Virus record (IMG/VR): IMGVR_UViG_3300027509_000002 | Coordinates: 1 to 64,000 of that record | Length of the DNA: 64,000 bases | Direction: 5' to 3' (one strand) | From: a virus | In this document: in pieces, positions 29,181 through 52,222 of the stretch | Numbering within the stretch: position 1 is the first letter of the stretch | Layout of the letters: each line of letters starts with the position of its first letter | Program-made: the position numbers and the translations under genes | Notes under the pieces: generated by a model | What the model was told of the DNA's origin: nothing | The model's database searches: none | The model's input: the letters and a program-made list of their open reading frames with translations, nothing else

Positions 29181-30776
29181 ATGGATAGCGAACAAAAAAA
29201 ATTTTCTTCTAAGATTGATGAACTGCGAGATAAAGAGGAAAAACTAAAAATTGAAAAATCTTTAGTTTTAAAAAATGCTCTACATAGTCAGGATGTAGTT
29301 GAAATCCAAAAGGCTCAAAATTACATTTCTTCTGTTTCTGATAAGAAAACGACTACTTCAAATAAGTCGTTACTTATTGATCCACAGGCTGTTACGTCAA
29401 ATGGTTTCTTAGATAAGAACTATCGTGTTTCCTACAATGTACTTAGAAATATGGCCAAAGTGCCAATTATTAAGGCTATTATTGAAACACGTAAGGAGCA
29501 AGTATTGTCTTTTTGTGAACCACAGAAAAACAAGTATTCTGTAGGGTTTGTTGTAAAGCCAAAAGATCATGACGAATCTAAAGACTTGTCCAAAGCACAG
29601 CAGTCACGAATTAAGGAATTGACATCTTTTATTCTTAACTGTGGTGACAAGGCGAATACATTTCATGGTGATACATTCAATTCTTTTACTAGGAAATTTA
29701 TGGATGACTCACTTACTTTAGATCAGGGTACATGGGAAAATGTTTATGCTAGAAGTGGTAAGGAGCTGGTGGAATTTATGGCTACAGATGGTGCTACATA
29801 TAGAATTGCCGATTCCTTTAATGACGAGTCAAGGCATAAAGAAAAATTGGTTAGAGGCTATCTACCGTATTACGTGCAGGTTTACAATGGTGCTATATCA
29901 GCCGAGTTTTACCCATGGGAGCTTACATTTGCTGTAAGAAACCCACAAAGTAACATATATAGCTTTGGTTACGGTAAGAGTGAGCTAGAAGATCTGATTT
30001 CAACTGTTACCAGTATCATTAATGCTGATTCGTATAATTCAAACTATTTTAAAGTAGGAGCTAATCCAAAAGGTATCTTAAAGGTATCTGGAAACATATC
30101 TACTTCACGTTTAGAGGAATTCAAGAATCACTGGCAAAGTCAGGTTGCAGGTGTACGAAATGCACACAAATTACCAGTTATAGAAGCTGATAAGATGGAC
30201 TTCATTAGTACGCAGACCAACAATAAAGACATGGAGTACGGCAAATACCAAGAGTATTTGATCAAATTGGCTTGTGCAGCTTATAAGATAGATCCATCAG
30301 AGGTAGGTTTTCCTATGAGTGGATCAAGTGATTCAGCACCAATGTTTGAGGGTAACAATGAAGCTAGATTAAAGTATTCTAAAGATAAAGGGTTAAAGCC
30401 TCTATTAAAGTTCTATCAGCATTATTTGAATAGAAACATAATGGAGATTAAAGATCCAAATTATGAGATAGAGTTTGTTGGTTTAGATGCTGAGACACCT
30501 GAGCAGGAGCTTGAAAAGAACATTAAAGAGGTTTCTAACTATAAAACAGTCAATGAGGTTCGTAAGTCCGTGGGATTAGATCCGTTAGACGATGGCGACA
30601 TTATTTTGAATCCAGTGATGCTACAAGCAAAGCAGATGGCCATGATGGGCGATGAAGAATCGAATGACTACATGGATGAGTCAGGAGATATGGGCATGGA
30701 TAGTTTAGGAGAGGAAGAAGAAAATCCATTTATGAAGGCCATACAGGTGGAAACAGATCGTATTTTAAGTGAGTAA
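29181..30776 (+). CDS. portal protein
   Basis: 531 aa. The core YFKVGANPKGILKVSG..EEFKNHWQSQVAGVRNAHKLPVIE..YQEYLIKLACAAYKIDPSEVGF is typical of portal families. Acidic C-terminus. Confidence 0.75.
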   Translation: MDSEQKKFSSKIDELRDKEEKLKIEKSLVLKNALHSQDVVEIQKAQNYISSVSDKKTTTSNKSLLIDPQAVTSNGFLDKNYRVSYNVLRNMAKVPIIKAIIETRKEQVLSFCEPQKNKYSVGFVVKPKDHDESKDLSKAQQSRIKELTSFILNCGDKANTFHGDTFNSFTRKFMDDSLTLDQGTWENVYARSGKELVEFMATDGATYRIADSFNDESRHKEKLVRGYLPYYVQVYNGAISAEFYPWELTFAVRNPQSNIYSFGYGKSELEDLISTVTSIINADSYNSNYFKVGANPKGILKVSGNISTSRLEEFKNHWQSQVAGVRNAHKLPVIEADKMDFISTQTNNKDMEYGKYQEYLIKLACAAYKIDPSEVGFPMSGSSDSAPMFEGNNEARLKYSKDKGLKPLLKFYQHYLNRNIMEIKDPNYEIEFVGLDAETPEQELEKNIKEVSNYKTVNEVRKSVGLDPLDDGDIILNPVMLQAKQMAMMGDEESNDYMDESGDMGMDSLGEEEENPFMKAIQVETDRILSE

Positions 30777-39596: not shown

Positions 39597-41414
39597 ATGA
39601 GCAATATACTAGAATTTGGTGAAGAGTTTGATTATCAGGATATAAATGCCCCTAGACGGGAGCAAATGCAGAAGTCATTTATTCAAGATGAAGAGTCAAT
39701 TGAAAAGGGAAACGTGAAGGGTCATTGGAGAACCACTAAGTCTGGCAAAAAGGTGTTCGTGAAAGACCATAGCAATGCGAAAACCAAAAAAGATTCTTTA
39801 TCAGCAAAAGAAAAAAGAGGCATAGAAGAAAGAACAAAAGAGAGAGCTGAAAAAATTGATTATTTATCTGATTATGAAAAACAGCCTAAAGAAGTACAGG
39901 CTATCATGGAGACTCTATCAGAGGGTGATGAATATGGATCTGATTCACCAGATGGATTAGAAGCAGCTCAAAAGAAACTTGCTGCTATTGGCTGGAAAAT
40001 GGAATACGGATTAGATGGTGGAGTGCATACATTAGAGCCGATTCAAAACAAAAAAAAAGCACTGCCAAAATATGATCAGTCATCCATAGATCAGGCAGCT
40101 AAACATATTTCTAGTATGACGGGCACACGAGATTCTGCCGTGAAGGATTTTGCCTCTGAAAATAACATTGATATAATGAAATTGGCTACGTATGTGGGGT
40201 CAAAGAAAATAAAACCAATGGATTTTTCGACAGCTATTTCAGGAAACAAGGGTAATCCATATGCTACAAAAATTGTAGATGCACTCACCAAGTCTCATGA
40301 GGAAACCATCGAAAAGGGTGGCTCAAAGCAAATCACCATTACACACAACAAAACAGGAAAAGAATTAACTGGTAGGTGGGTAACAATTAATGGTTCACAC
40401 GTATTTGTTTCAGGCGGTGGAGTTGAAATAGGAGCTAAAGAGATTAAGAACTATAGTGAAGGAAAAGGTGGTTCAGGTAAGTCAGAAGACACTAAGGGTA
40501 AAAAGGCTCTAAAGGAAGTGCAGAATAAAGACGATTTTGCTAGAAAAAATATTTCTGGTGATGAGCGTAGAGCTTTAAAGTCTAAATACGATGGTATGAG
40601 CAAGGATGAGCGAGCAGGACGTACTTGGGAGGCTTATTTGAACGATGAGGCCAAGAAAAAAGGAGGCGATAGTTCAGAAAAGACATCAGAAAAGACATCA
40701 GGAAAGAAGTCGGAGATTGAGGCCGTTAAACCTGGTGAAACAGTAACAGAAAAAGACGTTAACCCAGTAGAAAAAAAAGACGAGTCTTATAAGAAAACCG
40801 ATAAGTGGAAGGCTTTACATTCAAATGACAAAAAATCTATAGAAGCAGCAAAGAATTTAAAACATCTTGATTTAGATAAACTCACGTCTTCTGAATATTC
40901 TGATTTACAGGAAATGTTTGTTATAGTGGAGATGGAAATGCCAAGATCAGAAATAACCGCAGGAGATGAGATTGCTTTTAGATTACAATATGCCAATGCC
41001 GATGAAAAATTTAATGGGGTTTCTTTAAAAGACATGTATAAACTAGATGCAGGCAACGCAGCCGATTCTAAAGCAATGAATAAATGGTCAGAGGCGAAAG
41101 AGAAGAAAGTAAACGATGCCCTAGATGCATTTGAGAAGGAGGTTCAGAAAGAAATAGATGAAAAAAATCAAGTGGTACAGCAGGTAGCTAAGGAGGGCGT
41201 GAATATGAAGAACATTGCATCCATTATCTCTTCATCAATAGCGATTGAATACTTCACAGAAGAACTCAATGAAGACATATTAAATCAGCTTACTGCATTA
41301 GACAAGAAATACAATAAGCCTGTAGATCCAAATCAGCAAAGAATGTTTAAATCAGTTCAATCTATCACAGATAGAATTGAAGGTATATCGGACAAACTTG
41401 ACAGCCTTATATAA
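39597..41414 (+). CDS. K/E-rich polyvalent-type virion protein 1 (605 aa)
   Basis: Low-complexity charged linkers. Two IEKG plus hairpin modules: GHWRTTKSGKKVFVKDH and GRWVTINGSHVFVSGG. Confidence 0.6.
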   Translation: MSNILEFGEEFDYQDINAPRREQMQKSFIQDEESIEKGNVKGHWRTTKSGKKVFVKDHSNAKTKKDSLSAKEKRGIEERTKERAEKIDYLSDYEKQPKEVQAIMETLSEGDEYGSDSPDGLEAAQKKLAAIGWKMEYGLDGGVHTLEPIQNKKKALPKYDQSSIDQAAKHISSMTGTRDSAVKDFASENNIDIMKLATYVGSKKIKPMDFSTAISGNKGNPYATKIVDALTKSHEETIEKGGSKQITITHNKTGKELTGRWVTINGSHVFVSGGGVEIGAKEIKNYSEGKGGSGKSEDTKGKKALKEVQNKDDFARKNISGDERRALKSKYDGMSKDERAGRTWEAYLNDEAKKKGGDSSEKTSEKTSGKKSEIEAVKPGETVTEKDVNPVEKKDESYKKTDKWKALHSNDKKSIEAAKNLKHLDLDKLTSSEYSDLQEMFVIVEMEMPRSEITAGDEIAFRLQYANADEKFNGVSLKDMYKLDAGNAADSKAMNKWSEAKEKKVNDALDAFEKEVQKEIDEKNQVVQQVAKEGVNMKNIASIISSSIAIEYFTEELNEDILNQLTALDKKYNKPVDPNQQRMFKSVQSITDRIEGISDKLDSLI

Positions 41415-42895
41415 TGGAGTTTTTTGACGACATAGAAAAAGCTCATGATCCCTCAAAAGGGGGTAAATTGGTTAAGAAAACCATTGTAGATAAAACTGGT
41501 AAAAGAACCACTAAGTGGGTCAGCAAGGAACAAGCATCTAAGATGCAGGGAGGCCAAAACACTGATCCAGAAGAAGCACCAGTAGATACTACTAAAATCA
41601 CTGACTTACCAAGTAACCACAAAGCTGCTTTAGAGGTTATTAAGGAGTCTATGGACAATGGGGACTTAGATCATGCCTTAGAGCTTGCCAATAAGCTACC
41701 AGACGAGGTAAAGGAATATATACCTAAAGAGGATTGGAAAAAGCTATTGACTAAACGTGAAGAAGAGTCGGAGCAGGATGCAGAAAATAAGTCAGAGCCT
41801 AAGTCAGAGACTAAGAAAGAGACTAAGCCGAAAAAAAAGAAAGATACAAAAGACGGTATTGAGTATGCAGATGAGGAAATAGTGGGGGCAATTGGCGATC
41901 AATCTAATGCCAAAATGGATGCAAAAATAGATGGAAAAGTAGTTGGTACAGTTTCTTATTCTATATATGAAGGCCAGCCATCAATCCAAATGATAGAGGT
42001 TGGTAAAGATCAAAAAAGAAAATCGATTGCCACTAACTTAATGAAAAATCTACAGAAGAAATATCCAGATGTAGAAATTGACTTGGGTGGCTTTATGACA
42101 GAGGAAGGATCTAATTTTATATCAAAGCTAGATCGAGAGTTTGTCCCCAATACAGCATATAGTGATACAGAAGAACTAATATCTCAGTTACAACAGCAAA
42201 GTGATAAAATCATTGAGGAAATTTCCAACAATAATTACACCAATGCTGATACATTAGATGACATTAGCGACACTATCTATGATTTGAAGGTGGAATTAGA
42301 GGAAGCTGAAAAAGGCAAATATATTATCAATACTAAGGATAAAAAAGTATTGACGGATAAAGAAATATTTGCCGAATATGACCAAGAAGTATCAAAATAT
42401 TCAGAAGATCAGGTTTATAGCTTAAATGAATATAGAGGTGCAGACTATAGAGATATTAATGCAGATCTTAGAGATGACAATGAACTTAATGAAGATAATC
42501 AGCGAATAGTGGACGACATAGATTCGGCCTTTATTCCATCAAAGCAAGATATGGTTCTTACTAGAGGCATTGCAGGTAAATCAGATGAAAAGATAAAGTT
42601 TTTTCTTGATTTAGAAGTAGGTGATGAATATACAGACAAGGGATATTCTTCAACTAGCGTAAGTGCTGATGCCGTAGATGGGTTTTTAGATAACATGTCA
42701 CCACAGTTTAGTAAATCTAAAATGGTTTTAACAATTGTGGCTAAAAAGGGTTCAAAAATTGTGCCTATGCAAAATGTGGGGTCTGAACACAGCAATGAAG
42801 AATATAAAAAGGAAAAGGAAATTTTATTACCAAGAAACAGCAAATTTAAGGTGTTATCTAAAACAAATGGTGCAATGAAAGTGCAGTTATTATGA
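41414..42895 (+). CDS. GNAT-like plus ADP-ribosyltransferase (R-S-ExE class) fusion protein
   Basis: The ART triad is LTRGI (R384), YSSTSV (STS 413-415) and EKEILLPRNSKF (E467-x-E469), preceded by YRGADYRDINADLR. The middle region VGTVSYSIY..KRKSIATNLMKNL is GNAT-like. Confidence 0.75.
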   Translation: MEFFDDIEKAHDPSKGGKLVKKTIVDKTGKRTTKWVSKEQASKMQGGQNTDPEEAPVDTTKITDLPSNHKAALEVIKESMDNGDLDHALELANKLPDEVKEYIPKEDWKKLLTKREEESEQDAENKSEPKSETKKETKPKKKKDTKDGIEYADEEIVGAIGDQSNAKMDAKIDGKVVGTVSYSIYEGQPSIQMIEVGKDQKRKSIATNLMKNLQKKYPDVEIDLGGFMTEEGSNFISKLDREFVPNTAYSDTEELISQLQQQSDKIIEEISNNNYTNADTLDDISDTIYDLKVELEEAEKGKYIINTKDKKVLTDKEIFAEYDQEVSKYSEDQVYSLNEYRGADYRDINADLRDDNELNEDNQRIVDDIDSAFIPSKQDMVLTRGIAGKSDEKIKFFLDLEVGDEYTDKGYSSTSVSADAVDGFLDNMSPQFSKSKMVLTIVAKKGSKIVPMQNVGSEHSNEEYKKEKEILLPRNSKFKVLSKTNGAMKVQLL

Positions 42896-45800
42896 AAGAC
42901 AGATTTATATCCCAAGACAGCAAAGGCTTAGAAAAAGAGATAAGTGTAAAAACAGAAGAGGTTGTTGAAAAAGGACATTCAAATACTAAACTGGTTAAGA
43001 AGCAGGTATTGGTGAATAGGAATGGCAAATCTTTTTATCAAACAGTATATGTTAACCCCGAAACAGGGGAGGAATCAGATACACCAAAAGGAGAAGAGAT
43101 TTCACCCGTTTTAAACGGTATGGAGATTATCAAGTATTCTGATAAAGCCATGCTTATAAAGGGCGATACTTATGTAAACAAAGAGGATTTAAGAGCAGTT
43201 AAAAAGGAAATCGGTGTTGGTAGCTGGAACGCTAAATTGCAGGGGTGGATATTTCCCATTAAATTCAAAGATACTATTCTTGGCTCTTTATGGTCAAAGC
43301 AAATGGAAAAGGGCAATGAAGAAAAAGCCAATGCCATAAAGAACCAAAAGAATGCATCACTTGAAACAGGTGATTTAGCCAGCATTGATGGCCAAGTTGG
43401 TGTTGTAGAAGAAGAAGTTTCAGATTCTAATGGGGTTAAATACAATATTTCTTTGGAGGATGGAAATAAATTGTCTGGCGTAAGCGAAAAAGCTATTTCT
43501 GTAGATCCTGAAACAGACGACAATAAGGTAGCCGAAGCCGTTAATGAAGCCAATGAATTTAATCGAAATAAGACGGCTAAAAAAATATATGGCATTAAAC
43601 CCATAGAAAATGTTCATGAATACACTCTTTCCGACTATTTAGGTTTACATGGAATAACTCAGGAAGAGATAGATAATGCAGTAGCTAAATTAAACTCAAA
43701 GAAGCCAGCTAAGAAACGATCTTCTTTTTCTGGATCATCTACTAGCACAAGATCAACGTCTGGTGAACCCAAAGAGCTCAGTAGGCAACAATTGATCAGC
43801 AAACTAATATATAAACACTATCAATCTGTACAGAAAGCGTTGAACGAAGGCAAATCGGTGTCAGAAAATGTATTGTCCATCTATCCAGATCTAACGCCAC
43901 AAGAGACAGAAGAAAAAGAAGAAGCGGTAGCGGAAGTACCAAAAGAAAAAGAAGCGATGTCAGAAGAGACAAAGCGTAAAATTTCTGAGGCATTGAAGGG
44001 TAAAAAAAGAGGGGGCAAAGAAGTAGAAGAGTGGAAAGAAAAACTATCTGCATTAGAAGTTGAGTTGGAGATCAATCAAAAGGAATTTTATGATTTTAAT
44101 AGGCCAGAATATTCCGATCCTGATTATAACGAACGAAATGTACAGCTTGGAGAGCTACGTACAAAAATAGACGGTCTTAAAAAGTCAATTCATGATACAA
44201 AAAATACCATAAAGGCATTAGAAAACGGAGGATCTATAATGTCTGTAGAAGATAAGTTGGGGAATATACATGATAATATTCCTAGCTTTATTGGAACTTC
44301 TACTGAGGATGTTATGTATGATGAAGATACTATACTAAATAAAGAAAAGCCAGATTTTATACCAGAAATGGACGAAGACTTGCTTGAAAGAGGGAAGTAT
44401 ATGCCAGATGCCATAAAAATCGGTGCTGATCAATATTTGGTGGCTACAAGAAAATATACTGAGAGTTCCAGAAAAACTGGTGAAAGAGGTTATGGAGAAT
44501 TCGTAAAAGAATATAATCCCAATGAACCAGGATATGCCGTTATGAGTCTTGATCAACTTGTTTTAACACAAGACTACTATATTACAAGAGCAAAGGCAAA
44601 AAATAAACAAAAAGCTGCCAAAGACAATCAAAGACAATTAGATCATTGGAATGGCTTATCTGATAAAAGAAAAGAGTATTATTTAATGCAGAGGGGACTA
44701 TATAGAAAACTATCTGCTAAAAAGAAAAAGGAAATTAGCTCAGAGCAATGGGATAGCATGTCATGGCAAGATAGAGAAGAGCATTATAAGCCAATTAAAA
44801 AATTTGGTGTAAAAAGAGTAAGTGTTTATTCTTCTGATAAAACAATGGCTAGTTCGTTTCACTCTATGTATGAAAGATTTACTGATCCAGAAGCAACTAG
44901 AGTTAATGGGGCTGGGAAAACTCTTAAAAGAGGCGAAGGTAGGGGATATGCTCATCCAATTGTTGTAAAAGAGTGGAATACTTTAAGAAATGATTTGGAG
45001 ATAAAATCCAACGATATTAGAATGTATCGTGAAGAATTGGGCGATGGTACTTTTTCAAAGGGAAGAGAAACAGCTTATGGAGACAGTGGTGTTTCCAATG
45101 CCCTTTTAGATTCTCATGGTCTTAAAGTAAAAAGGCAAAATGGAGATGAAATATCGCCAAAAGAAATAGATGAAATTAAGAGTTCTTGGGAAGATGTTAC
45201 GAAATCATTTGGCCCACTAAAAGAAAACGCCAAAGAATTTGGATTAAAAATATCTCATTCTGGGGATAAATTAATGCATGCCAGAAAAGCTCTTGGACTT
45301 TATACCCCAGCACACAAAGCAATTGGTGTAACTGCTAAGGTGGGTCAAGATCAATTTAGCTTTACCCTTGGTCATGAAGTCGCACACTGGATTGATAATT
45401 CATTAGGCAAAAAAGAGGGTAGAAGATTTGCATCTGATAATTTTGAGTCTACTGCTGGCCAAATAGCAAAGACACTTAGAGAAAAAATGAATGGTGAAAA
45501 GCCAAGTAAGTACTATAACAGTACTTGCGAGTGCTTTGCTAGAGCCTTAGAGCAATATCATGCTGTAGAAAGCGTTGGTGAAACTGCTGCTAGAGGCGAA
45601 TCAGGAAAGCCATATTTTGACATGGACTATTATGCATCTAAGTCGGTTTACGATAATGACATAAAGCCATTGATCGAGAAGTTTTTAGGTGAGAATAAAG
45701 AATTTTTTAAATCATTCGGAGCTATGGATATTACAAAAGGATTTATTAAGACATTAATGGATGCAGGATCAAAGTTTCTAGGATCTGATAAGAAAGAGAA

Positions 45801-46281
45801 AACTAAAGATTTTGCTGACTGTATTGTATTTAATAAAAAGGCAGAGGTGCTATTGTTGAAAAGAGCAGATAATGGGAAGTATTGGCTACCAGGTGGAAGC
45901 GTGGACACTGATGACACCAATCATGAAGTAGCAGCCTTTAGAGAGCTTGTAGAGGAAACCAATCTAATTCCAGACATACACGCCTTTAGTGATACAAAAG
46001 TGGCTAAGAATGGCGGTAATATTTACGTATATGTAGTAATGCCAGAAACAGAAATGGTAGTCTTAGATCCAGATGAACATACTGATTTTGGTTGGTATAA
46101 CATGTCAGAAATTGAAGATTTAGCTATTTTATTCGGATCTCATGATCTATTAAGAGAAATGGTAGGTAAGGCTAAGCACACTCTTTTTGACAGCGTTGCT
46201 CAGGCAGCATTTAACTCTGGACAAATAACAGAAGATGAGTACCTTAATGGTCTTAGTTTTCTAAAGAACGGACACCTATAG
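42892..46281 (+). CDS. 1129-aa polyvalent protein with HExxH metallopeptidase-like motif and C-terminal Nudix domain
   Basis: NUMOD3-like SEETKRKISEALKGKKRG. HEVAH at 45373-45387. Nudix box LPGGSVDTDDTNHEVAAFRELVEETNL starts at 45892. Confidence 0.7.
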   Translation: MKDRFISQDSKGLEKEISVKTEEVVEKGHSNTKLVKKQVLVNRNGKSFYQTVYVNPETGEESDTPKGEEISPVLNGMEIIKYSDKAMLIKGDTYVNKEDLRAVKKEIGVGSWNAKLQGWIFPIKFKDTILGSLWSKQMEKGNEEKANAIKNQKNASLETGDLASIDGQVGVVEEEVSDSNGVKYNISLEDGNKLSGVSEKAISVDPETDDNKVAEAVNEANEFNRNKTAKKIYGIKPIENVHEYTLSDYLGLHGITQEEIDNAVAKLNSKKPAKKRSSFSGSSTSTRSTSGEPKELSRQQLISKLIYKHYQSVQKALNEGKSVSENVLSIYPDLTPQETEEKEEAVAEVPKEKEAMSEETKRKISEALKGKKRGGKEVEEWKEKLSALEVELEINQKEFYDFNRPEYSDPDYNERNVQLGELRTKIDGLKKSIHDTKNTIKALENGGSIMSVEDKLGNIHDNIPSFIGTSTEDVMYDEDTILNKEKPDFIPEMDEDLLERGKYMPDAIKIGADQYLVATRKYTESSRKTGERGYGEFVKEYNPNEPGYAVMSLDQLVLTQDYYITRAKAKNKQKAAKDNQRQLDHWNGLSDKRKEYYLMQRGLYRKLSAKKKKEISSEQWDSMSWQDREEHYKPIKKFGVKRVSVYSSDKTMASSFHSMYERFTDPEATRVNGAGKTLKRGEGRGYAHPIVVKEWNTLRNDLEIKSNDIRMYREELGDGTFSKGRETAYGDSGVSNALLDSHGLKVKRQNGDEISPKEIDEIKSSWEDVTKSFGPLKENAKEFGLKISHSGDKLMHARKALGLYTPAHKAIGVTAKVGQDQFSFTLGHEVAHWIDNSLGKKEGRRFASDNFESTAGQIAKTLREKMNGEKPSKYYNSTCECFARALEQYHAVESVGETAARGESGKPYFDMDYYASKSVYDNDIKPLIEKFLGENKEFFKSFGAMDITKGFIKTLMDAGSKFLGSDKKEKTKDFADCIVFNKKAEVLLLKRADNGKYWLPGGSVDTDDTNHEVAAFRELVEETNLIPDIHAFSDTKVAKNGGNIYVYVVMPETEMVVLDPDEHTDFGWYNMSEIEDLAILFGSHDLLREMVGKAKHTLFDSVAQAAFNSGQITEDEYLNGLSFLKNGHL

Positions 46282-46333
46282 TATATAACACACTGTTTCC
46301 CAACAAGTTGTGTAAATAAGATATAATGTACAT

Positions 46334-46360
46334 GCATGTTCACGTGAGCGTGTCACATGC
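46334..46360 (+). other. GC-rich hairpin in an intergenic region
   Basis: GCATGT/ACATGC outer stem and CACG/CGTG inner stem with a 4-nt loop. No T tract follows. Confidence 0.5.
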
Positions 46361-46398
46361 CATATATAGTCTTTGTAATCGGTTAATAATGACTTAAC

Positions 46399-46407
46399 TA
46401 TTTTTAT
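46399..46407 (+). promoter_or_regulatory. promoter-like TATTTTTAT box
   Basis: 15 nt upstream of ATG 46422. Confidence 0.3.
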
Positions 46408-46421
46408 ACAAAGAAACTATT

Positions 46422-49019
46422 ATGGAATTCCTCAATTTTGATAAAGACAACAATACATTCTTATTCAAGAATGAATATGATCACATAATTAGAAAATCAG
46501 CAAGCCAAGTAATTGAGCAACATCCTGATTTAGCTATTGAGATCACAAAAAATATATTTGATTTTGTAGAAAAGGGTGCAAAAGCAAACGCTGGCGAAAT
46601 TAGAGAGCATGGTGGTGTAAAGATGCAAAAATTAGCATCTGGAAAATGGGCTAAGGTAGGTTCATCTAAGGGCAAATCAGATGCCAAGGGAAGCGAATCT
46701 ATCCAGAATGCCATCAATGTACGAGAAAAGGCTTTAAAGATGGCTAGAGATAGCGGTAACGAAGGCATTATTTCTAAACTATCTACGCAGTTAACGGATC
46801 TTAAAGCTCAATTGAAGGGTGCTAAAACTACTGTAGAGAAATCAGCAGAGCAGGATTTAGAAAAAGCTACATACAAAGATACTCCTGAAAATAGAAAGTT
46901 AGGTAGAGTTGGTAAAGAATGGGGTGGAAAGAAAGAAGGACAAAAAAACACTGATGGATCACAATCTAGTGGCAAGACCGTTAAAATATCTGAGAATTTA
47001 CGTTTGGAGGGCACACCAAATAAAGAGTTTGCCGAAGGAATTTTAAGTGCTCTTAGGTCATACCCAAAAGGGCATCATGCTAGGCCATTTATGCCAAATA
47101 AAGAATATGGTTCTGTTTATGGTGTAAAACTGACAACTCTTAAAGAAACGACCGAAAAAGATTTAGAAAGATTGGAGATTTTTGCTAGAAAAATATTGTC
47201 TGACGATCCCAATATAAAAGTTAAAAAATCAGACGATCAAGACATAGAGAAAGCACAGAAGTATATTAGACGAACTGGAACGCCAGGAAACTATAAGTAC
47301 GAATATGCTGATTCAAAATCAAATGTAAGAGGCCACAAAAATACTGTAGTAGAATCTGATGAAAATAAGATGAAAATCTTACAGGGTCAATTAGAAGAAG
47401 ATACTATCAAAAGAGCAAAGGCAAAAGAAGAGGGTAATTCTACCAAAGAAGCACATTTTGATCATGAAGTGAAAAGGCTTAGAAAAGAGATTGGAGAATT
47501 GAGAGCTAACGGTACAGACGAAAAAAAGGAATTAGAGGCACATAAGGAGAGCGATAAAAAGACTCCAAGCCCAGAAGCGGTCTTTAAGGAAGTATATGAC
47601 AAATATAACGCTAAGGATTATTTTGGGGAAAAGAGCCGCATAGAGTCAGCCGTTAAACAGTGGAAGTCTTTTCTTGAAAGAGGTGATGAAGGTGCAAAAA
47701 AATATACTAAAGAAGACGTAGTGCAGCATATGGAACGTGCCATTGCAGCCGAGGCAAAGCACACTTTTGATACACTAAAGACAGCTATTGATAGTAAAGA
47801 TATAAACAAGTTAAAATCAAGAGTTCGTTATGATCAGCCATATACAAAAGAGCTTTTCTCAAAATTAACAGGTATTAGTGTACCCAGCACAAATGCACAA
47901 ATTAATACCATGCTGGACCAATTTGCATCCGACAGTAAAAAAAAAATTGAAAAATCAGATAGCCAAGAAATAGAAAAGGCTCAAAAAAAAGGGTACTACA
48001 GAACCCTAAAAAGTGGCAAAAAAGTATATGTTAAGCCACATCAAGATTCGAGAACAAAGAAAGAGGAAAAGACATTTGTAATACGATCTAGGGTAAAGGA
48101 TGCCAACAATAAACTATTAGATGACGTGCATGTATCTGTGCAAGCCAACAGTGCACAGGAAGCAGAAGAAAAAGCAGCAGCTAAGCTAAGTGAAAATCCT
48201 GCATACCCTAAAGATGGCAGATTGGAATTAGTAGATGTAAATATTGCTGATTCAAAGAGTTTAGAGCAAAAAAGGGCTCAGGGTAAATTAGACTTACTAC
48301 GCAAAAGAATCACTAAAGAAGTTAAGAAGCTAGAACAAAAAGATCTATTGGATATAGAACGAAAAATGATAGAGAGCACAGTTAAAGAATGGCAGAATTG
48401 GGCAAAAGAGTATGAGAAAGCTGCCAATAGCACTCCACTTCCAATAAAGAATATGCCTGAGTTTATGAGCTATTTGAACAGCTTCTACGGTAAAGATGGT
48501 GTATATCCAAATAAAATGGGGGAAGATGTCAAAGAATCTGATGTGATTGATGCTATTAAATATGCTGCATCAAAAGGATATAATTTTGACAATGGTGACA
48601 GTATGGATCGTGAAACGGTTAGAGACATATTAACTGAGCGAAATCTGATTGATCCTAATTATGACAATAGCCATGCCAATGAAGAGAAAATAGTCGTTCC
48701 TGCTGATGAAGCACCGAAACAGCCAGACCATACAGTAGCAAAAACTATTTTACAGCAATTGGGTGGAAGTCAATTTACGGCTATGACAGGAGCAAAGAAC
48801 TTTGGAGCAGATGCAAATAAGTTAATGTTTAAAATAGCGAAAAATGCCAAAAACGTAACTCATGTTTCCATCACTTTAAACGGGAAAGATTTATATGACG
48901 TGAAATACATTAATGTTAGAGGATCTAATATAAAGACCATGAGCGAAAGCAATGATATTTATGCTGATATGTTAGTAAACGATTTTGAACAAAATACAGG
49001 AATGTACACAAGAATTTAA
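46422..49019 (+). CDS. K/E-rich polyvalent-type virion protein 4 (865 aa)
   Basis: Internal repeat KSD(D/S)Q(D/E)IEKAQK. The module GYYRTLKSGKKVYVKPHQDSRTKK matches the 39597 product. Confidence 0.6.
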   Translation: MEFLNFDKDNNTFLFKNEYDHIIRKSASQVIEQHPDLAIEITKNIFDFVEKGAKANAGEIREHGGVKMQKLASGKWAKVGSSKGKSDAKGSESIQNAINVREKALKMARDSGNEGIISKLSTQLTDLKAQLKGAKTTVEKSAEQDLEKATYKDTPENRKLGRVGKEWGGKKEGQKNTDGSQSSGKTVKISENLRLEGTPNKEFAEGILSALRSYPKGHHARPFMPNKEYGSVYGVKLTTLKETTEKDLERLEIFARKILSDDPNIKVKKSDDQDIEKAQKYIRRTGTPGNYKYEYADSKSNVRGHKNTVVESDENKMKILQGQLEEDTIKRAKAKEEGNSTKEAHFDHEVKRLRKEIGELRANGTDEKKELEAHKESDKKTPSPEAVFKEVYDKYNAKDYFGEKSRIESAVKQWKSFLERGDEGAKKYTKEDVVQHMERAIAAEAKHTFDTLKTAIDSKDINKLKSRVRYDQPYTKELFSKLTGISVPSTNAQINTMLDQFASDSKKKIEKSDSQEIEKAQKKGYYRTLKSGKKVYVKPHQDSRTKKEEKTFVIRSRVKDANNKLLDDVHVSVQANSAQEAEEKAAAKLSENPAYPKDGRLELVDVNIADSKSLEQKRAQGKLDLLRKRITKEVKKLEQKDLLDIERKMIESTVKEWQNWAKEYEKAANSTPLPIKNMPEFMSYLNSFYGKDGVYPNKMGEDVKESDVIDAIKYAASKGYNFDNGDSMDRETVRDILTERNLIDPNYDNSHANEEKIVVPADEAPKQPDHTVAKTILQQLGGSQFTAMTGAKNFGADANKLMFKIAKNAKNVTHVSITLNGKDLYDVKYINVRGSNIKTMSESNDIYADMLVNDFEQNTGMYTRI

Positions 49020-49029
49020 TATATATAAT

Positions 49030-50721
49030 ATGACACCAAAAAATAATTTTAAATTTTATATCAACGCTGATATATCCAAAGCCAAAAATGGCAAGGATAT
49101 GATCATTCAGGGTATCGCTTCTACATCTGCTAAAGATTCACAAGGCGAATTCCTAGATCCTAGAACATTTGATTTGAATGATTTTAACTGGATTAACTGG
49201 AATCACAAAGGAAAAGATGATCCATCTACAATTATAGGTGAACCAATACATGCAGAAGTCAATGAAAAAAATGAGCTCTTTATTAAGGGTCTATTATATG
49301 ACGATGTTCCAATGGCTAAGGCTACTTACAAATTAATGAAGGCATTACAGAAGTCACCAACTGGAAACAGGTTAGGGATGTCTGTAGAGGGTAGAGTAAT
49401 CGAAAGAGACTCTATGAACCCAGCTAAGATATTGAAATCAAAGATCACAGGCGTAGCGATATGCCCAGTGCCAGTAAACGGTGCTACATGGACTGAACTA
49501 ATCACTAAGGGATATACAGAAAATGAGACTCCGATATACGATATAGATCAATATGCAGATAAAGAGGTCGAAAAAGCGATGTCTATTGAAGGCACTACAG
49601 GAGCTTTAGAGAACGAAGGTATTGATCGTAAATTAGAACATGAATCGGTGGAGGGTACAAAGAAGAAAAAGAAGAAAAAGAACGGGGAAACGGTAGATTT
49701 AAAGGTGTTAACTAAATCGGAAGCCTATAAATCTATATTTAATTATTTTTATATCAACGATATAGCGAAAGCTAAACAAATTTATTCTTTAATAGAAAAC
49801 ATTAGTATTATGGACAAACAACAAATTACTAAAGAAACAATTGAAAAAGCACTTGAAATTATCAAGGTTGCTGATTCTGTAGTTTCTAGTAACGAGGATG
49901 CTACATCGGATGTAGTTGAAACATCAGAAGAGATAGAAACTACTGCCGAAGCTACGGAAGAAGTTGAAAAGTCTGAAACAGAAAACATTGAAAAAGGTGA
50001 AAAAACAAACGATGCACCTGACAATGTAGAAGAAAAAGAAGCGGTAGCTGAAAAAGATGAAGATTCAGAAGAAGAAGATGAAGATGTGGAAAAAAGCATC
50101 TATAAGTCGGCTTGCAATTATGCCAAAAAACTATTTAGTAAGGGCATGGATGAAGATGAAATCAAAAAGGCTATGAGTAAAGTATATTCTAAAGATGTAA
50201 CTACAAAGGCATGTGCTTCTGTAGATATGGGAGCAAACGCTGCTGCTAACATGGGAGGAATTACACCACAAGGTAGTATCAAAAAATCTGAAACCATCGA
50301 GTTAGAAAAAAGTTTTTCTGCTATGGCTGACAAATTTGAGAATCTTTCTAAATCTTTTGAAGAAAAATTTGATACAATCAAAAAATCTTATGACAATTTA
50401 TCAGAAGAGAATTCTACTTTAAAAAATAGAATCAAAGAAATTGAAAATACACCGACTGCACCAAAGTCTCTTATCTCTAAATCATGGGCTGAAAGGTTCG
50501 AGAGTAAAATAAAAGAGGGTGGTGATATAGAAAAGGGTGAAATCTATAGTTTAAGCAATAAACAATCAAGAGAGGATCTAATCAACAAGGCATTTGAAAT
50601 GGCTATTGAAAAAGGAGATGACGATCTTTCTCGAATCGTAAAAGGCTTAGAGGCCACAAAACAGATTGACGATAGAGGTCAGGCTAAATTAAAAGCGTTA
50701 GGAATCAACGTATTACCGTAA
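49030..50721 (+). CDS. prohead serine protease (HK97/S78-like) fused to an acidic scaffold-like domain
   Basis: The N-terminal IIQGIASTSAKDSQGE..NWNHKG..RLGMSVEGRV has a His/Ser layout like S78 proteases. The C-terminal half is E/D/K-rich coiled coil. Start at ATG 49030. Confidence 0.6.
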   Translation: MTPKNNFKFYINADISKAKNGKDMIIQGIASTSAKDSQGEFLDPRTFDLNDFNWINWNHKGKDDPSTIIGEPIHAEVNEKNELFIKGLLYDDVPMAKATYKLMKALQKSPTGNRLGMSVEGRVIERDSMNPAKILKSKITGVAICPVPVNGATWTELITKGYTENETPIYDIDQYADKEVEKAMSIEGTTGALENEGIDRKLEHESVEGTKKKKKKKNGETVDLKVLTKSEAYKSIFNYFYINDIAKAKQIYSLIENISIMDKQQITKETIEKALEIIKVADSVVSSNEDATSDVVETSEEIETTAEATEEVEKSETENIEKGEKTNDAPDNVEEKEAVAEKDEDSEEEDEDVEKSIYKSACNYAKKLFSKGMDEDEIKKAMSKVYSKDVTTKACASVDMGANAAANMGGITPQGSIKKSETIELEKSFSAMADKFENLSKSFEEKFDTIKKSYDNLSEENSTLKNRIKEIENTPTAPKSLISKSWAERFESKIKEGGDIEKGEIYSLSNKQSREDLINKAFEMAIEKGDDDLSRIVKGLEATKQIDDRGQAKLKALGINVLP

Positions 50722-50758: not shown

Positions 50759-52222
50759 ATGAACAACACTTTAGACGATATGCAAAACGGATTCGCTGGT
50801 GACGGTGGGCAAGATGCAGAGTACTTATTGAAAGCTATGCAAGCTGGTCACATCACAGGACGTGAAACCGCAAATCAGTCTTTAACGCAAGAGCCGTTAA
50901 AAGCTGAATCTTTAGAAAAGACATTGAAATTATTAGATCACAGAACAAGTGATTTAAAATTAATCAATGCAATGCCAAAAATGACTGCTTATAACACAGT
51001 TGAAGAATTTATTCAGTTAGAGTCTTATGGTAATCAACGTGGAGGTTTTTACGGGGAAGGAGAACTTTCTGATGTAGAAGATTCTAAGTATGTAAGACGT
51101 GCTGAAAAGATCAAGTACTTACAAGTAACTGGATCTGTAACTCTTCAAGCACAAATGGTGAAATCTTTTGTTCCAGCAATGGCTAAAGAGGTTTCTAACA
51201 AAGTAATGTGGATTCAGCGTAGAGCGAATACCTTTATCACTAAAGGAAACGAGAATATCGTTCCAGAAGAGTGGAATGGTTTATATGCACAGCATGCTTC
51301 TATTGGAACTGGTAGCGGTTTCTTATATAATAACCTTGATGCGTATTACGGATCAGAAGTTGTTGTAGATTTAAGAGGAAAGTCTCTTAAACAAGAGGAT
51401 GTAGAAGACGGAGCAGTAAGAGTAGATGCTAATTTTGGTATTCCAACTCACTTATTTGCTGCACCAGTTGTAATCTCTGCTTTAGCAAAAGATTATTACA
51501 ATGATCAGCGTATCTTAATGAACGGTGGTGGATATGACGGTGTTATTGGAACAGTTCCAAAGGCTATTTCTACTACTATGGGTGACATCACTCTAGGAAA
51601 CGATAAATTCATGGCTGCTGAGCCTGCTAAGTTATCATCTAATACTGCTACAAGTGTGAAAGCACCTGCTGCCCCTGTAGCTGATGCTTCACCTGCACTT
51701 GCTACTGATGGTTCATCTGTACTTGAAGCTGGTGAAGATGGCCCAGTATTTTATGCTGTGTCTGCCATCAATAGATATGGAGAGTCTGCATTAACAGTTC
51801 AAGGAGCTGCTGTAACTCTTACAGTTGGATCATCTGTAGATTTAGATTTCTCTGCTGGTGTAGGATCTGCATTCGCTGCAACTGCATTTAGAGTATATAG
51901 AACTAAAGTAAACGGTGCGAACACTGGTAAGTTTTACCCAATCTTTGAAGTATCTGCTGCTGAATTAGCTTCTGGCTATGATAGTGCTGCACCTGGTCTT
52001 GCAAGAGACAGACATAGATTACTTCCTGACTGTGAAACTGCATTCTTAGCTGAGATGACAGAAGAAGCAATGAGCTTTAAGCAACTTGCACCTGTATCTA
52101 AGTTAGACCTTGCTGTAGTTGGATTGAGTAGATCTTTTGTAGCATTCTTATTTGCAACGCCTCAGTTGTATGCACCTAAGAAAATGGTTAAGTTTGTAAA
52201 CGTTGGGAAAACTCTTAACTAG
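50759..52222 (+). CDS. major capsid protein (HK97-fold type)
   Basis: 487 aa, immediately after the protease/scaffold gene. Locally higher GC and Ala/Gly/Val-rich. A strong terminator follows. Confidence 0.75.
   Translation: MNNTLDDMQNGFAGDGGQDAEYLLKAMQAGHITGRETANQSLTQEPLKAESLEKTLKLLDHRTSDLKLINAMPKMTAYNTVEEFIQLESYGNQRGGFYGEGELSDVEDSKYVRRAEKIKYLQVTGSVTLQAQMVKSFVPAMAKEVSNKVMWIQRRANTFITKGNENIVPEEWNGLYAQHASIGTGSGFLYNNLDAYYGSEVVVDLRGKSLKQEDVEDGAVRVDANFGIPTHLFAAPVVISALAKDYYNDQRILMNGGGYDGVIGTVPKAISTTMGDITLGNDKFMAAEPAKLSSNTATSVKAPAAPVADASPALATDGSSVLEAGEDGPVFYAVSAINRYGESALTVQGAAVTLTVGSSVDLDFSAGVGSAFAATAFRVYRTKVNGANTGKFYPIFEVSAAELASGYDSAAPGLARDRHRLLPDCETAFLAEMTEEAMSFKQLAPVSKLDLAVVGLSRSFVAFLFATPQLYAPKKMVKFVNVGKTLN

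Follow-up and report, generated by a model that had tools for sequence, protein, structure and literature searches.

A recurrent arrangement of a short motif and a small basic module is found in four large open reading frames (ORFs A to D) of a Flavobacteriia-type myophage, in a 64,000-nucleotide (nt) stretch of viral DNA (positions 1 to 64,000 of IMG/VR record IMGVR_UViG_3300027509_000002; hereafter, the window). The motif is hydrophobic-E-K-(G/A/S), and all the modules, including a 24-residue cationic beta-hairpin present in two closely similar copies, lie 1-19 residues downstream of it. We consider it somewhat probable that A to D are capsid-packaged "polyvalent" cargo polyproteins that are cut by the prohead protease at this motif, yielding fragments that begin with the small basic modules. 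The four ORFs sit between the portal gene and the genes for the protease-scaffold and capsid proteins, that is, in a virion-packaging context. All features described below are on the plus strand, an arrow marks a predicted cut, and a site together with its module is called a cassette.

The motif is strongly overrepresented in these proteins. Hydrophobic-EK-(G/A/S) occurs 11 times in A to D versus 1.87 +/- 1.41 in shuffled sequences, and eight times in the acidic scaffold portion of the protease-scaffold fusion, where 0.43 +/- 0.66 occurrences are expected. Usually, it is doubled, in the form hydrophobic-x-K-S-x(4-5)-hydrophobic-E-K-(G/A), as in MQKSFIQDEESIEKG, LTKSHEETIEKG, VEKSAEQDLEKA, VKKSDDQDIEKA, and IEKSDSQEIEKA. 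This bipartite form is present six times in A to D (0.08 expected) and, across the window, is limited to A, C, D, and E, and the single motif is virtually absent from the remaining ~60 ORFs. In ORF A (605 amino acids [aa], 39597-41414), the bipartite motif MQKSFIQDEESIEK↓G spans aa 24-38 (39666-39710), with a cut predicted after K37 (IEK at 39699-39707). In ORF D (865 aa, 46422-49019), for which the motif scan yields six predicted sites and four cassettes, the motif IEKSDSQEIEK↓A (47946-47978) predicts cuts after K511 and K519; two more acidic-x-hydrophobic-EK sites, at K51 and K148, lie ahead of still different modules. Acidic sequence precedes the sites; past them, the net charge is +3 to +6 in A to D and -1 to -7 in the scaffold, where none of the eight sites is followed by a basic module. 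N-terminal leaders that end in hydrophobic-EK comprise 37 aa in A, 9 in B, 27 in C, and 51 in D.

The same motif is found in the head proteins. In the HK97-fold major capsid protein (50759-52222, PHROG profile), the predicted maturation site is LEK↓T (AESLEK↓T; aa 52-54, 50912-50920). The sequence PLK(A/V)ESLEK↓T is invariant among the capsid proteins of the clade, which share just 43-63% identity overall, and gp6.1 of SPO1 (PDB 9vel) reads ESLER↓S at the aligned position. A motif scan of the portal protein (29181-30776, PHROG profile) predicts a site IEK↓S (KIEK↓S) at aa 24-26 (29250-29258), and the portal protein from the related locus L011 has a counterpart, LEK↓A, at aa 28. Related loci could be recovered only through alignment of the capsid protein; single protease or capsid-protein queries returned nothing. 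Across 58 such loci, the motif is enriched over composition 11-fold in the protease/scaffold zone, 4.2-fold in the ORFs upstream in the head region, and 1.7-fold downstream, with hydrophobic-KE, -DK, and -ER, used as controls, showing no enrichment. Because the motif spans the scaffold, the capsid protein, the portal, and the internal proteins, the prohead protease is the suggested cutter. A literature search for a published capsid cleavage site of SPO1-like phages (Herelleviridae) or for this motif returned nothing usable.

The protease gene (48985-50721) encodes an S78-type N-terminal domain fused to the acidic scaffold and matches phrog_1028, "head maturation protease" (E = 1.5e-31). In the clade, 6 of the 19 aligned protease N-domains match Pfam Peptidase_S78 (PF04586; best E-value, 8.4e-5), and the alignment contains invariant His59 and Ser118. 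The family is that of HK97 gp4. The delta domain of HK97 gp5 (L099, 1029-1400) has five hydrophobic/x-x-K-(S/A) motifs: IQK↓A, LTK↓S, EKK↓S, LIK↓S, and, in TFNK103↓S104LGS, FNK↓S; mature gp5 starts at Ser104, FNK103↓S104 being the known maturation cut. In HK97, as predicted for the window, the cut follows Lys, with a hydrophobic residue at P3 and a small one at P1', and multiple similar sites are located in the part that is degraded. From these sequences, we infer that the clade follows the HK97 rule (Lys at P1, between a hydrophobic P3 and a small P1') with P2 set to Glu. The two systems differ in that HK97 has no packaged cargo proteins, whereas the clade of the window nearly always has Glu at P2 and often doubles the motif, at a spacing of 8-9 residues.

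With its listed TTG start (48985), the protease-scaffold gene and the end of ORF D overlap by 35 nt. The true start is probably the ATG at 49030, which yields MTPKNNFKFYINADISK↓AKNGKDMIIQGIASTS, a match to the conserved N-terminus of the clade proteases, FNFFVPL..EK↓GG...IKGIASTD. Nearly every protease of the clade carries hydrophobic-(E/x)-K-(G/A/S) immediately ahead of the catalytic domain (aa ~15-20), and K17 is nearly invariant (for example, 49030-49090 in the window, 12330-12400 in L001, and 22974-23050 in L095). This conservation suggests N-terminal autoprocessing, and the motif resembles the LIE-9 site near the N-terminus of T4 gp21.

The 24-residue hairpin is represented by GHWRTTKSGKKVFVKDHSNAKTKK in ORF A (aa 42-65, 39720-39791) and GYYRTLKSGKKVYVKPHQDSRTKK in ORF D (aa 524-547, 47991-48062); extended to 27 residues, the element reads NVKGHWRTTKSGKKVFVKDHSNAKTKK. 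Both peptides were spotted in the first-pass annotation, in which the translation of copy 1 was exact and copy 2 was a real peptide but was placed at about 47989-48060, 2 nt off and in a frame that contains a stop. The copies are identical at 15 of 24 positions, one more than the 14 originally counted, and at 20 of 35 once the D..IEK....KG ahead of them is counted in. Within A to D, the highest BLOSUM score between 24-mers is 86, compared to 43.8 +/- 3.5 (maximum, 54) in 100 whole-protein shuffles (z ~12). When copy 2 alone was shuffled with its own Lys-rich composition retained, scores averaged 9.7 +/- 5.8 (maximum, 45), and 0 of 5,000 shuffles reached 86. The similarity thus exceeds what the K/G/V content produces, the outcome on which the initial proposal had been staked. 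Their nucleotide sequences are 57% identical, with the same codon at only 8 of 19 identical residues; hence, the similarity is maintained at the protein level, and the nucleotide divergence rules out a recent DNA duplication as the source of both copies.

AlphaFold2 (AF2) modeling of A aa 20-80, from a six-sequence alignment, bears out the proposed hairpin: two strands, aa 42-46 (GHWRT) and aa 52-56 (KVFVK), with a predicted local distance difference test (pLDDT) score of 85-87, are joined by a TKSGK turn. The flanks, including the IEK site, are disordered (pLDDT ~55). Two confident strands and a turn make the label "hairpin" fair. The hairpin profile, a hidden Markov model (HMM), scores 48.7 bits with A aa 39-65 and 49.0 bits with D aa 521-547. 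Its consensus is V-K-G-H-ar-R-T-x-K-S-G-K-x-V-x-V-K-x-H (ar, aromatic); in a 15-sequence alignment, the core is x-V-K-G-H-x-R-T-T-K-S-G-K-x-V-x-V-K-x-H, with K3, R7, K10, and G12 invariant. The net charge is about +9 over 27 residues, and the aromatic, His, and Arg side chains alternate. On the evidence of the model and the alignments, we regard the 24-residue element as a true cationic beta-hairpin, one that folds on its own and can move from protein to protein.

No family in Pfam, NCBIfam, or the PDB sequences covers the hairpin. The sole library match is to the C-terminal ~30 profile positions of phrog_10678 (function not known; E = 6.8e-7 with copy 1 and 1.8e-3 with copy 2), a family that shares the hairpin alone with A and D, the rest of these proteins being unrelated to it. 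A PDB match to the designed "Pizza" propellers was a trivial VYV.DH match and was discarded. A resemblance to RNP1/RNP2 of the cold-shock domain (K-G-F-G-F-I ... V-F-V-H-F) was likewise rejected, given an hhalign probability of 0.2% and no Pfam match at E <= 10.

Four looser copies had also been proposed, and all exist at the implied places: A aa 259-274, B aa 18-38, C aa 33-60, and D aa 281-295. Each of the six copies is preceded by the acidic-x-hydrophobic-EK-(A/G) motif, as claimed. The idea of one module in all four giant ORFs thus holds for the cassette position. It fails for a single homologous 24-mer: when scored with a hairpin-core HMM built from 10 sequences, the looser copies in A, B, C, and D reach just -4 to +3.8 bits (-3.9 to +3.8 for those in B, C, and D), and they fall into several distinct module families. 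Judged from the sequences, the post-site position is shared by five or more types of short, basic, beta-rich module, each at a fixed distance of 3-11 aa past the site in many phages.

The second cassette of A consists of IEK↓GG and a beta module of ~50 aa (aa 241-290; 40308-40466) that contains GRWVTINGSHVFVSGG and the looser copy at aa 259-274 (40371-40418). The consensus of this family, hydrophobic-EK↓(G/A)xKPxxKEGEPITITNRxTGKxxTGxWRTxxGNKVFVSxDG, is kept in P0047, P0054, P0098, P0101, P0116, P0025, and P0072, and AF2 predicts a three-strand meander (pLDDT 68-75). In profile-profile comparison, its G.WRT..G.KVFV hairpin matches the 24-mer core (hhalign 90%, E = 1.7e-6), and A aa 259-274 is, by this sequence comparison, the sole looser copy demonstrably related to the hairpin. 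ORF B begins with a 9-aa leader, MEFFDDIEK↓A (IEK at 41432-41440), followed by the basic module at aa 18-38 (41465-41527). The leader of ORF C ends in VVEK↓G (42964-42972) and is followed by LVKKQVLVNRNGKSFYQTVYVNP (aa 33-60; 42988-43071); the site and module are also present in an orthologue in L017 (DLEK↓ADKSNLVKKKIWVTRGGKTFQQNVWVNP) and in L028. The type common to B and C, LVKKxVWVxRxGKxFxQxVWVNP, reaches only 11.7% in hhalign against the hairpin.

Three other cassettes of D carry still other modules. In the first, VEK↓G precedes a GEIREHGGVKMQKLASGKWAKV-type module (aa 52-85; 46566-46676) of the GE.R..G..Y.K..G.W family, which is unrelated to the hairpin (hhalign 0.5%) and occupies the post-site position also in L022, L025, L026, L049, and Chryseobacterium phage MA9V-3. 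In the second, VEKSAEQDLEK↓A precedes YKDTPENRKLGRVGKEWG (aa 149-172; 46833-46937), of the NRKLGRVG type, found 8-11 aa past the site in L017 (twice), L022, and L058. In the third, VKKSDDQDIEK↓A precedes KYIRRTGTPGNYKYEY (47244-47306), of the KYIRR..G..G.Y.Y.Y type, which includes the looser copy at aa 281-295 (47262-47306; 3.8 bits) and recurs in L040 and L032. The modules at aa 149-172 and aa 281-295 are further distinct families, each present in other phages.

Several additional post-site modules were observed outside the window. The metagenomic protein P0072 (929 aa) contains four different modules in series, each after hydrophobic-EK or KK (types NRK..VG, HKYTK, GGEGSRGGKIVGHTKSG, and GEPITITHNKTGKQITGHWRT), and is a clear example of cassette shuffling. 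In P0079, P0083, and P0114, another motif, hydrophobic-EK↓GGY(M/F)AKGG, recurs several times per protein. In sister phages, one module shows very strong conservation, namely, hydrophobic-EK↓GGEGS(K/R)GGx(I/V)IGHTKSGKP(I/V)Y....H..YKDF(T/S)..DH (L011, 12874-13365, 14132-14503, and 18810-19412; L019, L026, and L029-L033), often in small proteins among the tail genes, after a leader M..(E/I)(I/F)QKAQ..RIL..YGE...LLEK. This GHTKSGKPIY module is absent from the window, and its unification with the hairpin was rejected: the module HMM misses the copies in the window, and the hhalign probability of 24% is only suggestive. In MA9V-3, a 235-aa NUDIX protein (L001, 11616-12323) ends with GIEK↓SNISIGEVKEFGGMMHIFTLSGWKYYSK; here, the site and module are C-terminal, and cleavage would therefore detach the module from the enzyme.

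The hairpin itself extends well beyond this phage. ORF A was searched exhaustively with phmmer against 1.84 billion representative proteins, and further copies were sought by pattern scans. Near-identical copies are present in P0073 (ILNK↓STVKGHYRTTKSGKKVFVKEHVDKRTKK), in P0089 (WIQK↓GNVKGHYRTTKTGKRVFVMQHTDSRTRK), and twice in P0084, a 1,347-aa GNAT/RadC/LPD1 polyvalent protein; across the matches, polyvalent proteins with LPD1, RadC, SNF2, or C5-methyltransferase (C5-MTase) domains carry it. The pattern scans detected copies in viral loci L083-L086, genomic loci L088-L091, and metagenomic loci L102-L112; a match in L087, inside an RNA-polymerase-like ORF, is probably due to chance and was rejected. 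In L095, the portal gene is followed by a block that encodes an SNF2 polyvalent protein, InPase, and an LPD1 polyvalent protein; the locus has five hairpins in three proteins, each directly after (G/L)(L/F/Y)LIK↓S, and its protease begins with ...ELIEK↓S, as in the clade of the window. In L086, LPD1 adjoins the hairpin protein, and the copies come after LxLFGG. Given these different pre-motifs, the hairpin is conserved, whereas the pre-motif appears lineage-specific. Copies thus recur in polyvalent proteins of other phages, but the HMM found none in the 82 sister loci.

Other contexts are less obviously connected to virions. In L083, the hairpin is at the end of an Excalibur-like protein encoded beside a repressor and an integrase; in L085, it is part of a replication-module protein, with an SNF2 helicase encoded directly downstream; both proteins, along with P0073, are among the matches of phrog_10678. 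In Bacteroides phage BS162P1, it occupies the extreme N-terminus (residue 7) of a Lys-rich protein. In bacterial chromosomes (Polaribacter, Tenacibaculum, and metagenome-assembled genomes), the hairpin forms the end of signal-peptide proteins that have SH3_3 or Excalibur domains, the Tenacibaculum locus being ordinary chromosome, and many small metagenomic proteins have it after a Ser-rich linker or a signal peptide. In an Armatimonadetes metagenome-assembled genome (L091, 7173-7751), a small signal-peptide protein consists almost wholly of two tandem hairpin units (AVKGYTRTMKNGKKVAVKGYTRP...), which shows the unit itself to be an internal repeat of V-K-G-(H/Y)-T-R. Human-gut contigs L109-L111 (52-190 kb) encode a variant, EVKGYWRTLKSGKKIWVRPCTKCKGRG, with Cys residues after the second strand, in an ORF of ~258 aa. 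In L092, the peptide MNLQKSVEAILNKS occurs twice (3-500 and 1436-1894), at the C-terminus of the upstream ORF, which ends in ...PTMNLQKSVEAILNKSKAK before the stop codon, and as the N-terminal leader of the hairpin protein P0073; an ORF at nt 497-1423 lies between the two occurrences.

In the proposed mechanism, acidic-x-hydrophobic-E-K-(G/A/S) would be where the HK97-type (S78) prohead serine protease of this phage recognizes and cleaves its substrates, cutting after Lys, with the same site in use in the scaffold and at the N-termini of the capsid protein and the portal. Cutting would free acidic leader and linker peptides, with leaders of 37, 9, 27, and 51 aa removed, and would break A to D into about a dozen fragments: A into two, C possibly into two, and D into four or five. 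Nearly every fragment would start with a small basic beta-module 1-19 residues past the cut; the fragment produced by an optional cut in C after K140 would be the only one without such a start. The hairpin may bind polyanion non-specifically, inside the head the packaged DNA, and thereby retain the cargo fragment, neutralize charge, and let the fragment leave with the genome. We favor this role of DNA tether or escort over capsid targeting, envelope anchoring, and a protease exosite, and regard it as a reasonable candidate, although its probability falls somewhat short of even. A generic polyanion binder is suggested by the +9 charge, the alternating side chains, the portability of the hairpin, and its interchangeability with other basic modules.

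Assignment of A to D to the packaged polyvalent proteins follows from domain architecture and position, both of which match that class (PMC5512222). Such proteins combine at least two disparate activities per polypeptide, and this is what B (GNAT and ADP-ribosyltransferase [ART]) and C (HEVAH, NUDIX, and NUMOD3) contain. As in the published class, disparate domains (GNAT, ART, zincin-like peptidase, and NUDIX) are joined in large polypeptides beside head genes (PMC5512222), but unlike the LPD-bearing polyvalent proteins, A to D have no LPD domain match in Pfam. Iyer et al. (2017; PMC5512222) proposed processing mainly by embedded zincin-like peptidases, and a text search of that paper found neither this hairpin nor a Lys-type prohead-protease site.

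A close known parallel is T4, where the head internal proteins, Alt, and the capsid targeting sequence (CTS) are processed by the prohead protease gp21 (PMC9026906). As proposed for the window, T4 packages basic proteins and an ADP-ribosyltransferase in the head and injects them with the DNA, and short propeptides (7-19 aa in T4) end at a protease consensus common to the scaffold and the capsid protein; the 9-aa leader before the ART domain of ORF B parallels the 7-aa propeptide of Alt. The differences are the protease (S78 HK97-type in the window versus gp21), the site (hydrophobic-E-K↓small versus L/I-x-E↓), the precursors, which in the window are giant multidomain polyproteins with internal sites, and the conserved small basic beta-module at the predicted fragment starts, which T4 lacks. 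In the giant phages phiKZ, 201phi2-1, and SPN3US, many head and ejection proteins, including the portal and capsid proteins, are likewise cut at a short consensus, and in SPN3US propeptides are cut at multiple points (PMC10052503). There, the consensus is (A/S/G)-x-E↓, the protease is T4-like, and no conserved module has been reported at the new N-termini.

Among the rival explanations, the strongest is that the hairpin or the other post-site modules are capsid-targeting signals that dock the precursor on the scaffold or the capsid interior during procapsid assembly, like the T4 CTS (PMC9026906) or an encapsulin cargo-loading peptide. The hairpin does mark cargo encoded beside head genes, all the giant polyvalent proteins in L095 and L086 contain it, and the module of MA9V-3, C-terminal to a small Nudix protein after IEK↓S, looks like a removable tag. 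However, there are up to four cassettes per precursor, when one address would be enough, and at least five unrelated module types in the same position in one phage are ill-suited to a single docking site. Furthermore, the hairpin occurs in chromosomal secreted proteins, in non-virion phage modules, and in phages where the head-gene context differs. The conserved N-terminal leaders of many clade proteins, M..(I/F)QKA..RIL..Y and ..IQKSF..hydrophobic-EK, are more plausible than the hairpin as a targeting propeptide of the T4 kind. We therefore consider capsid targeting, one of the functions originally suggested for the module, unlikely.

Still less likely, in our estimate, is that the hairpin is a cationic anchor to the envelope or a membrane (lipopolysaccharide, phospholipid, or peptidoglycan) that helps ejected fragments associate with or cross the host envelope and that anchors the secreted SH3 and Excalibur proteins. 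The closest database copies, C-terminal in signal-peptide proteins after Ser-rich linkers or right after the signal peptide, fit this explanation, and the physico-chemistry of the hairpin is like that of cationic beta-hairpin peptides. Nevertheless, the element has no hydrophobic face apart from V/F/W/Y at alternate positions and is found also in cytoplasmic-type contexts, namely, with an SNF2 helicase, in a C5-methylase polyvalent protein, and in a replication module.

The original suggestion of a link to the protease stands for the preceding hydrophobic-E-K-(G/A/S) motif, through its enrichment in the clade and its likeness to the HK97 S78 sites, but not for the hairpin as a docking site. 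As an exosite or substrate-presentation element, the hairpin would dock on the prohead protease and position the adjacent scissile bond. Indeed, the spacing between pre-motif and hairpin is fixed at 1-4 aa in three phage lineages, with the hairpin always on the P' side. But no hairpin accompanies the eight scaffold sites, the capsid site, or the portal site, all of which precede acidic sequence, the same site precedes many different modules, and the cellular copies and those of L083 and L085 lack a cleavage-type pre-motif; we find this explanation quite improbable. Both a capsid-specific address and a protease exosite are disfavored by the occurrence of the hairpin in lysogeny- and replication-module proteins and in secreted bacterial proteins. 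Finally, that the similarity is a functionless by-product of K/G/V-rich low-complexity composition, as might be thought from the Lys-rich proteins and from most looser copies going unscored by the hairpin HMM, is refuted for both strong copies by the shuffling, the near-identical copies in unrelated phage and bacterial proteins, and the confident AF2 hairpin.

Several observations weigh against the cleavage and DNA-escort reading. Cutting in A to D is inferred from motif statistics, and the hydrophobic-x-K-S...hydrophobic-EK signature could be partly a structural (helical) leader instead of a cut site. The protease domain of the window itself is below Pfam detection and gave no match in sequence and profile searches of the PDB. 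Full-length orthologues of A and D were not found; for D, a search of 5.8 billion proteins returned only D itself and two partial matches. The hairpin HMM found no copies in the sister loci, and in L083, L084/L085, and L086 the hairpin occurs without a Lys-type pre-motif. The nearest cellular copies are on secreted proteins, where DNA is not an obvious ligand, and neither the cold-shock hhalign comparison nor Pfam revealed similarity of the hairpin to a nucleic-acid-binding fold.

The remaining features of the ORFs and their relatives are as follows. ORF A, a predicted cargo precursor with two cassettes, matches zero Pfam families above threshold, and no enzymatic domain was recognized by Pfam in A or D; sub-domains of A have modular homologues in 113 representative proteins. 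ORF B (493 aa, 41414-42895) combines the GNAT (PF00583, E = 6.2e-5) and ART (PF03496, E = 6.4e-16) domains. ORF C (1,129 aa, 42892-46281; phrog_22901, E = 5e-61) contains a zincin-like region with HEVAH, a putative metallopeptidase with a weak DUF6782-like match, and a NUDIX domain (E = 4.6e-13). NUMOD3, a DNA-binding motif of homing endonucleases, lies inside C at aa 356-372 (43957-44007; Pfam E = 3.3e-4, just above threshold). The capsid protein shares 58.6% identity with that of MA9V-3, ~39% with those of Bacteroides DAC phages, and ~33% with those of SPO1-like phages; it can be aligned to SPO1 gp6.1 and to phi812 (5lii) and is thus distantly SPO1-like. A megablast search of the region against 50,697 phage genomes gave zero matches.

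If the proposed cleavage and packaging scheme is correct, hydrophobic-E-K↓G/A/S would be a testable cleavage rule for a large uncultured clade of Bacteroidota myophages, predicting the mature capsid, portal, scaffold, and cargo proteins in that clade. Giant polyvalent proteins would then be processable by an ordinary prohead protease, beyond embedded metallopeptidases alone, and a small, uncatalogued cationic hairpin would mark the starts of cargo fragments in several phage lineages while also decorating secreted bacterial proteins. More tentatively, and with rather less confidence than in the tether itself, we suggest that a lineage-specific protease site joined to the cationic beta-hairpin may form a portable "cargo cassette" by which diverse tailed phages assemble, dice, and DNA-tether injected polyvalent effectors, the hairpin being a minimal DNA-escort domain not described before and exchanged, in one direction or the other, with the secreted proteins of bacteria. 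With a cassette of this kind as a handle, it would become easier to annotate injected effectors in metagenomes and to engineer phage-delivered protein cargo, and phage heads could be programmed to deliver foreign proteins.

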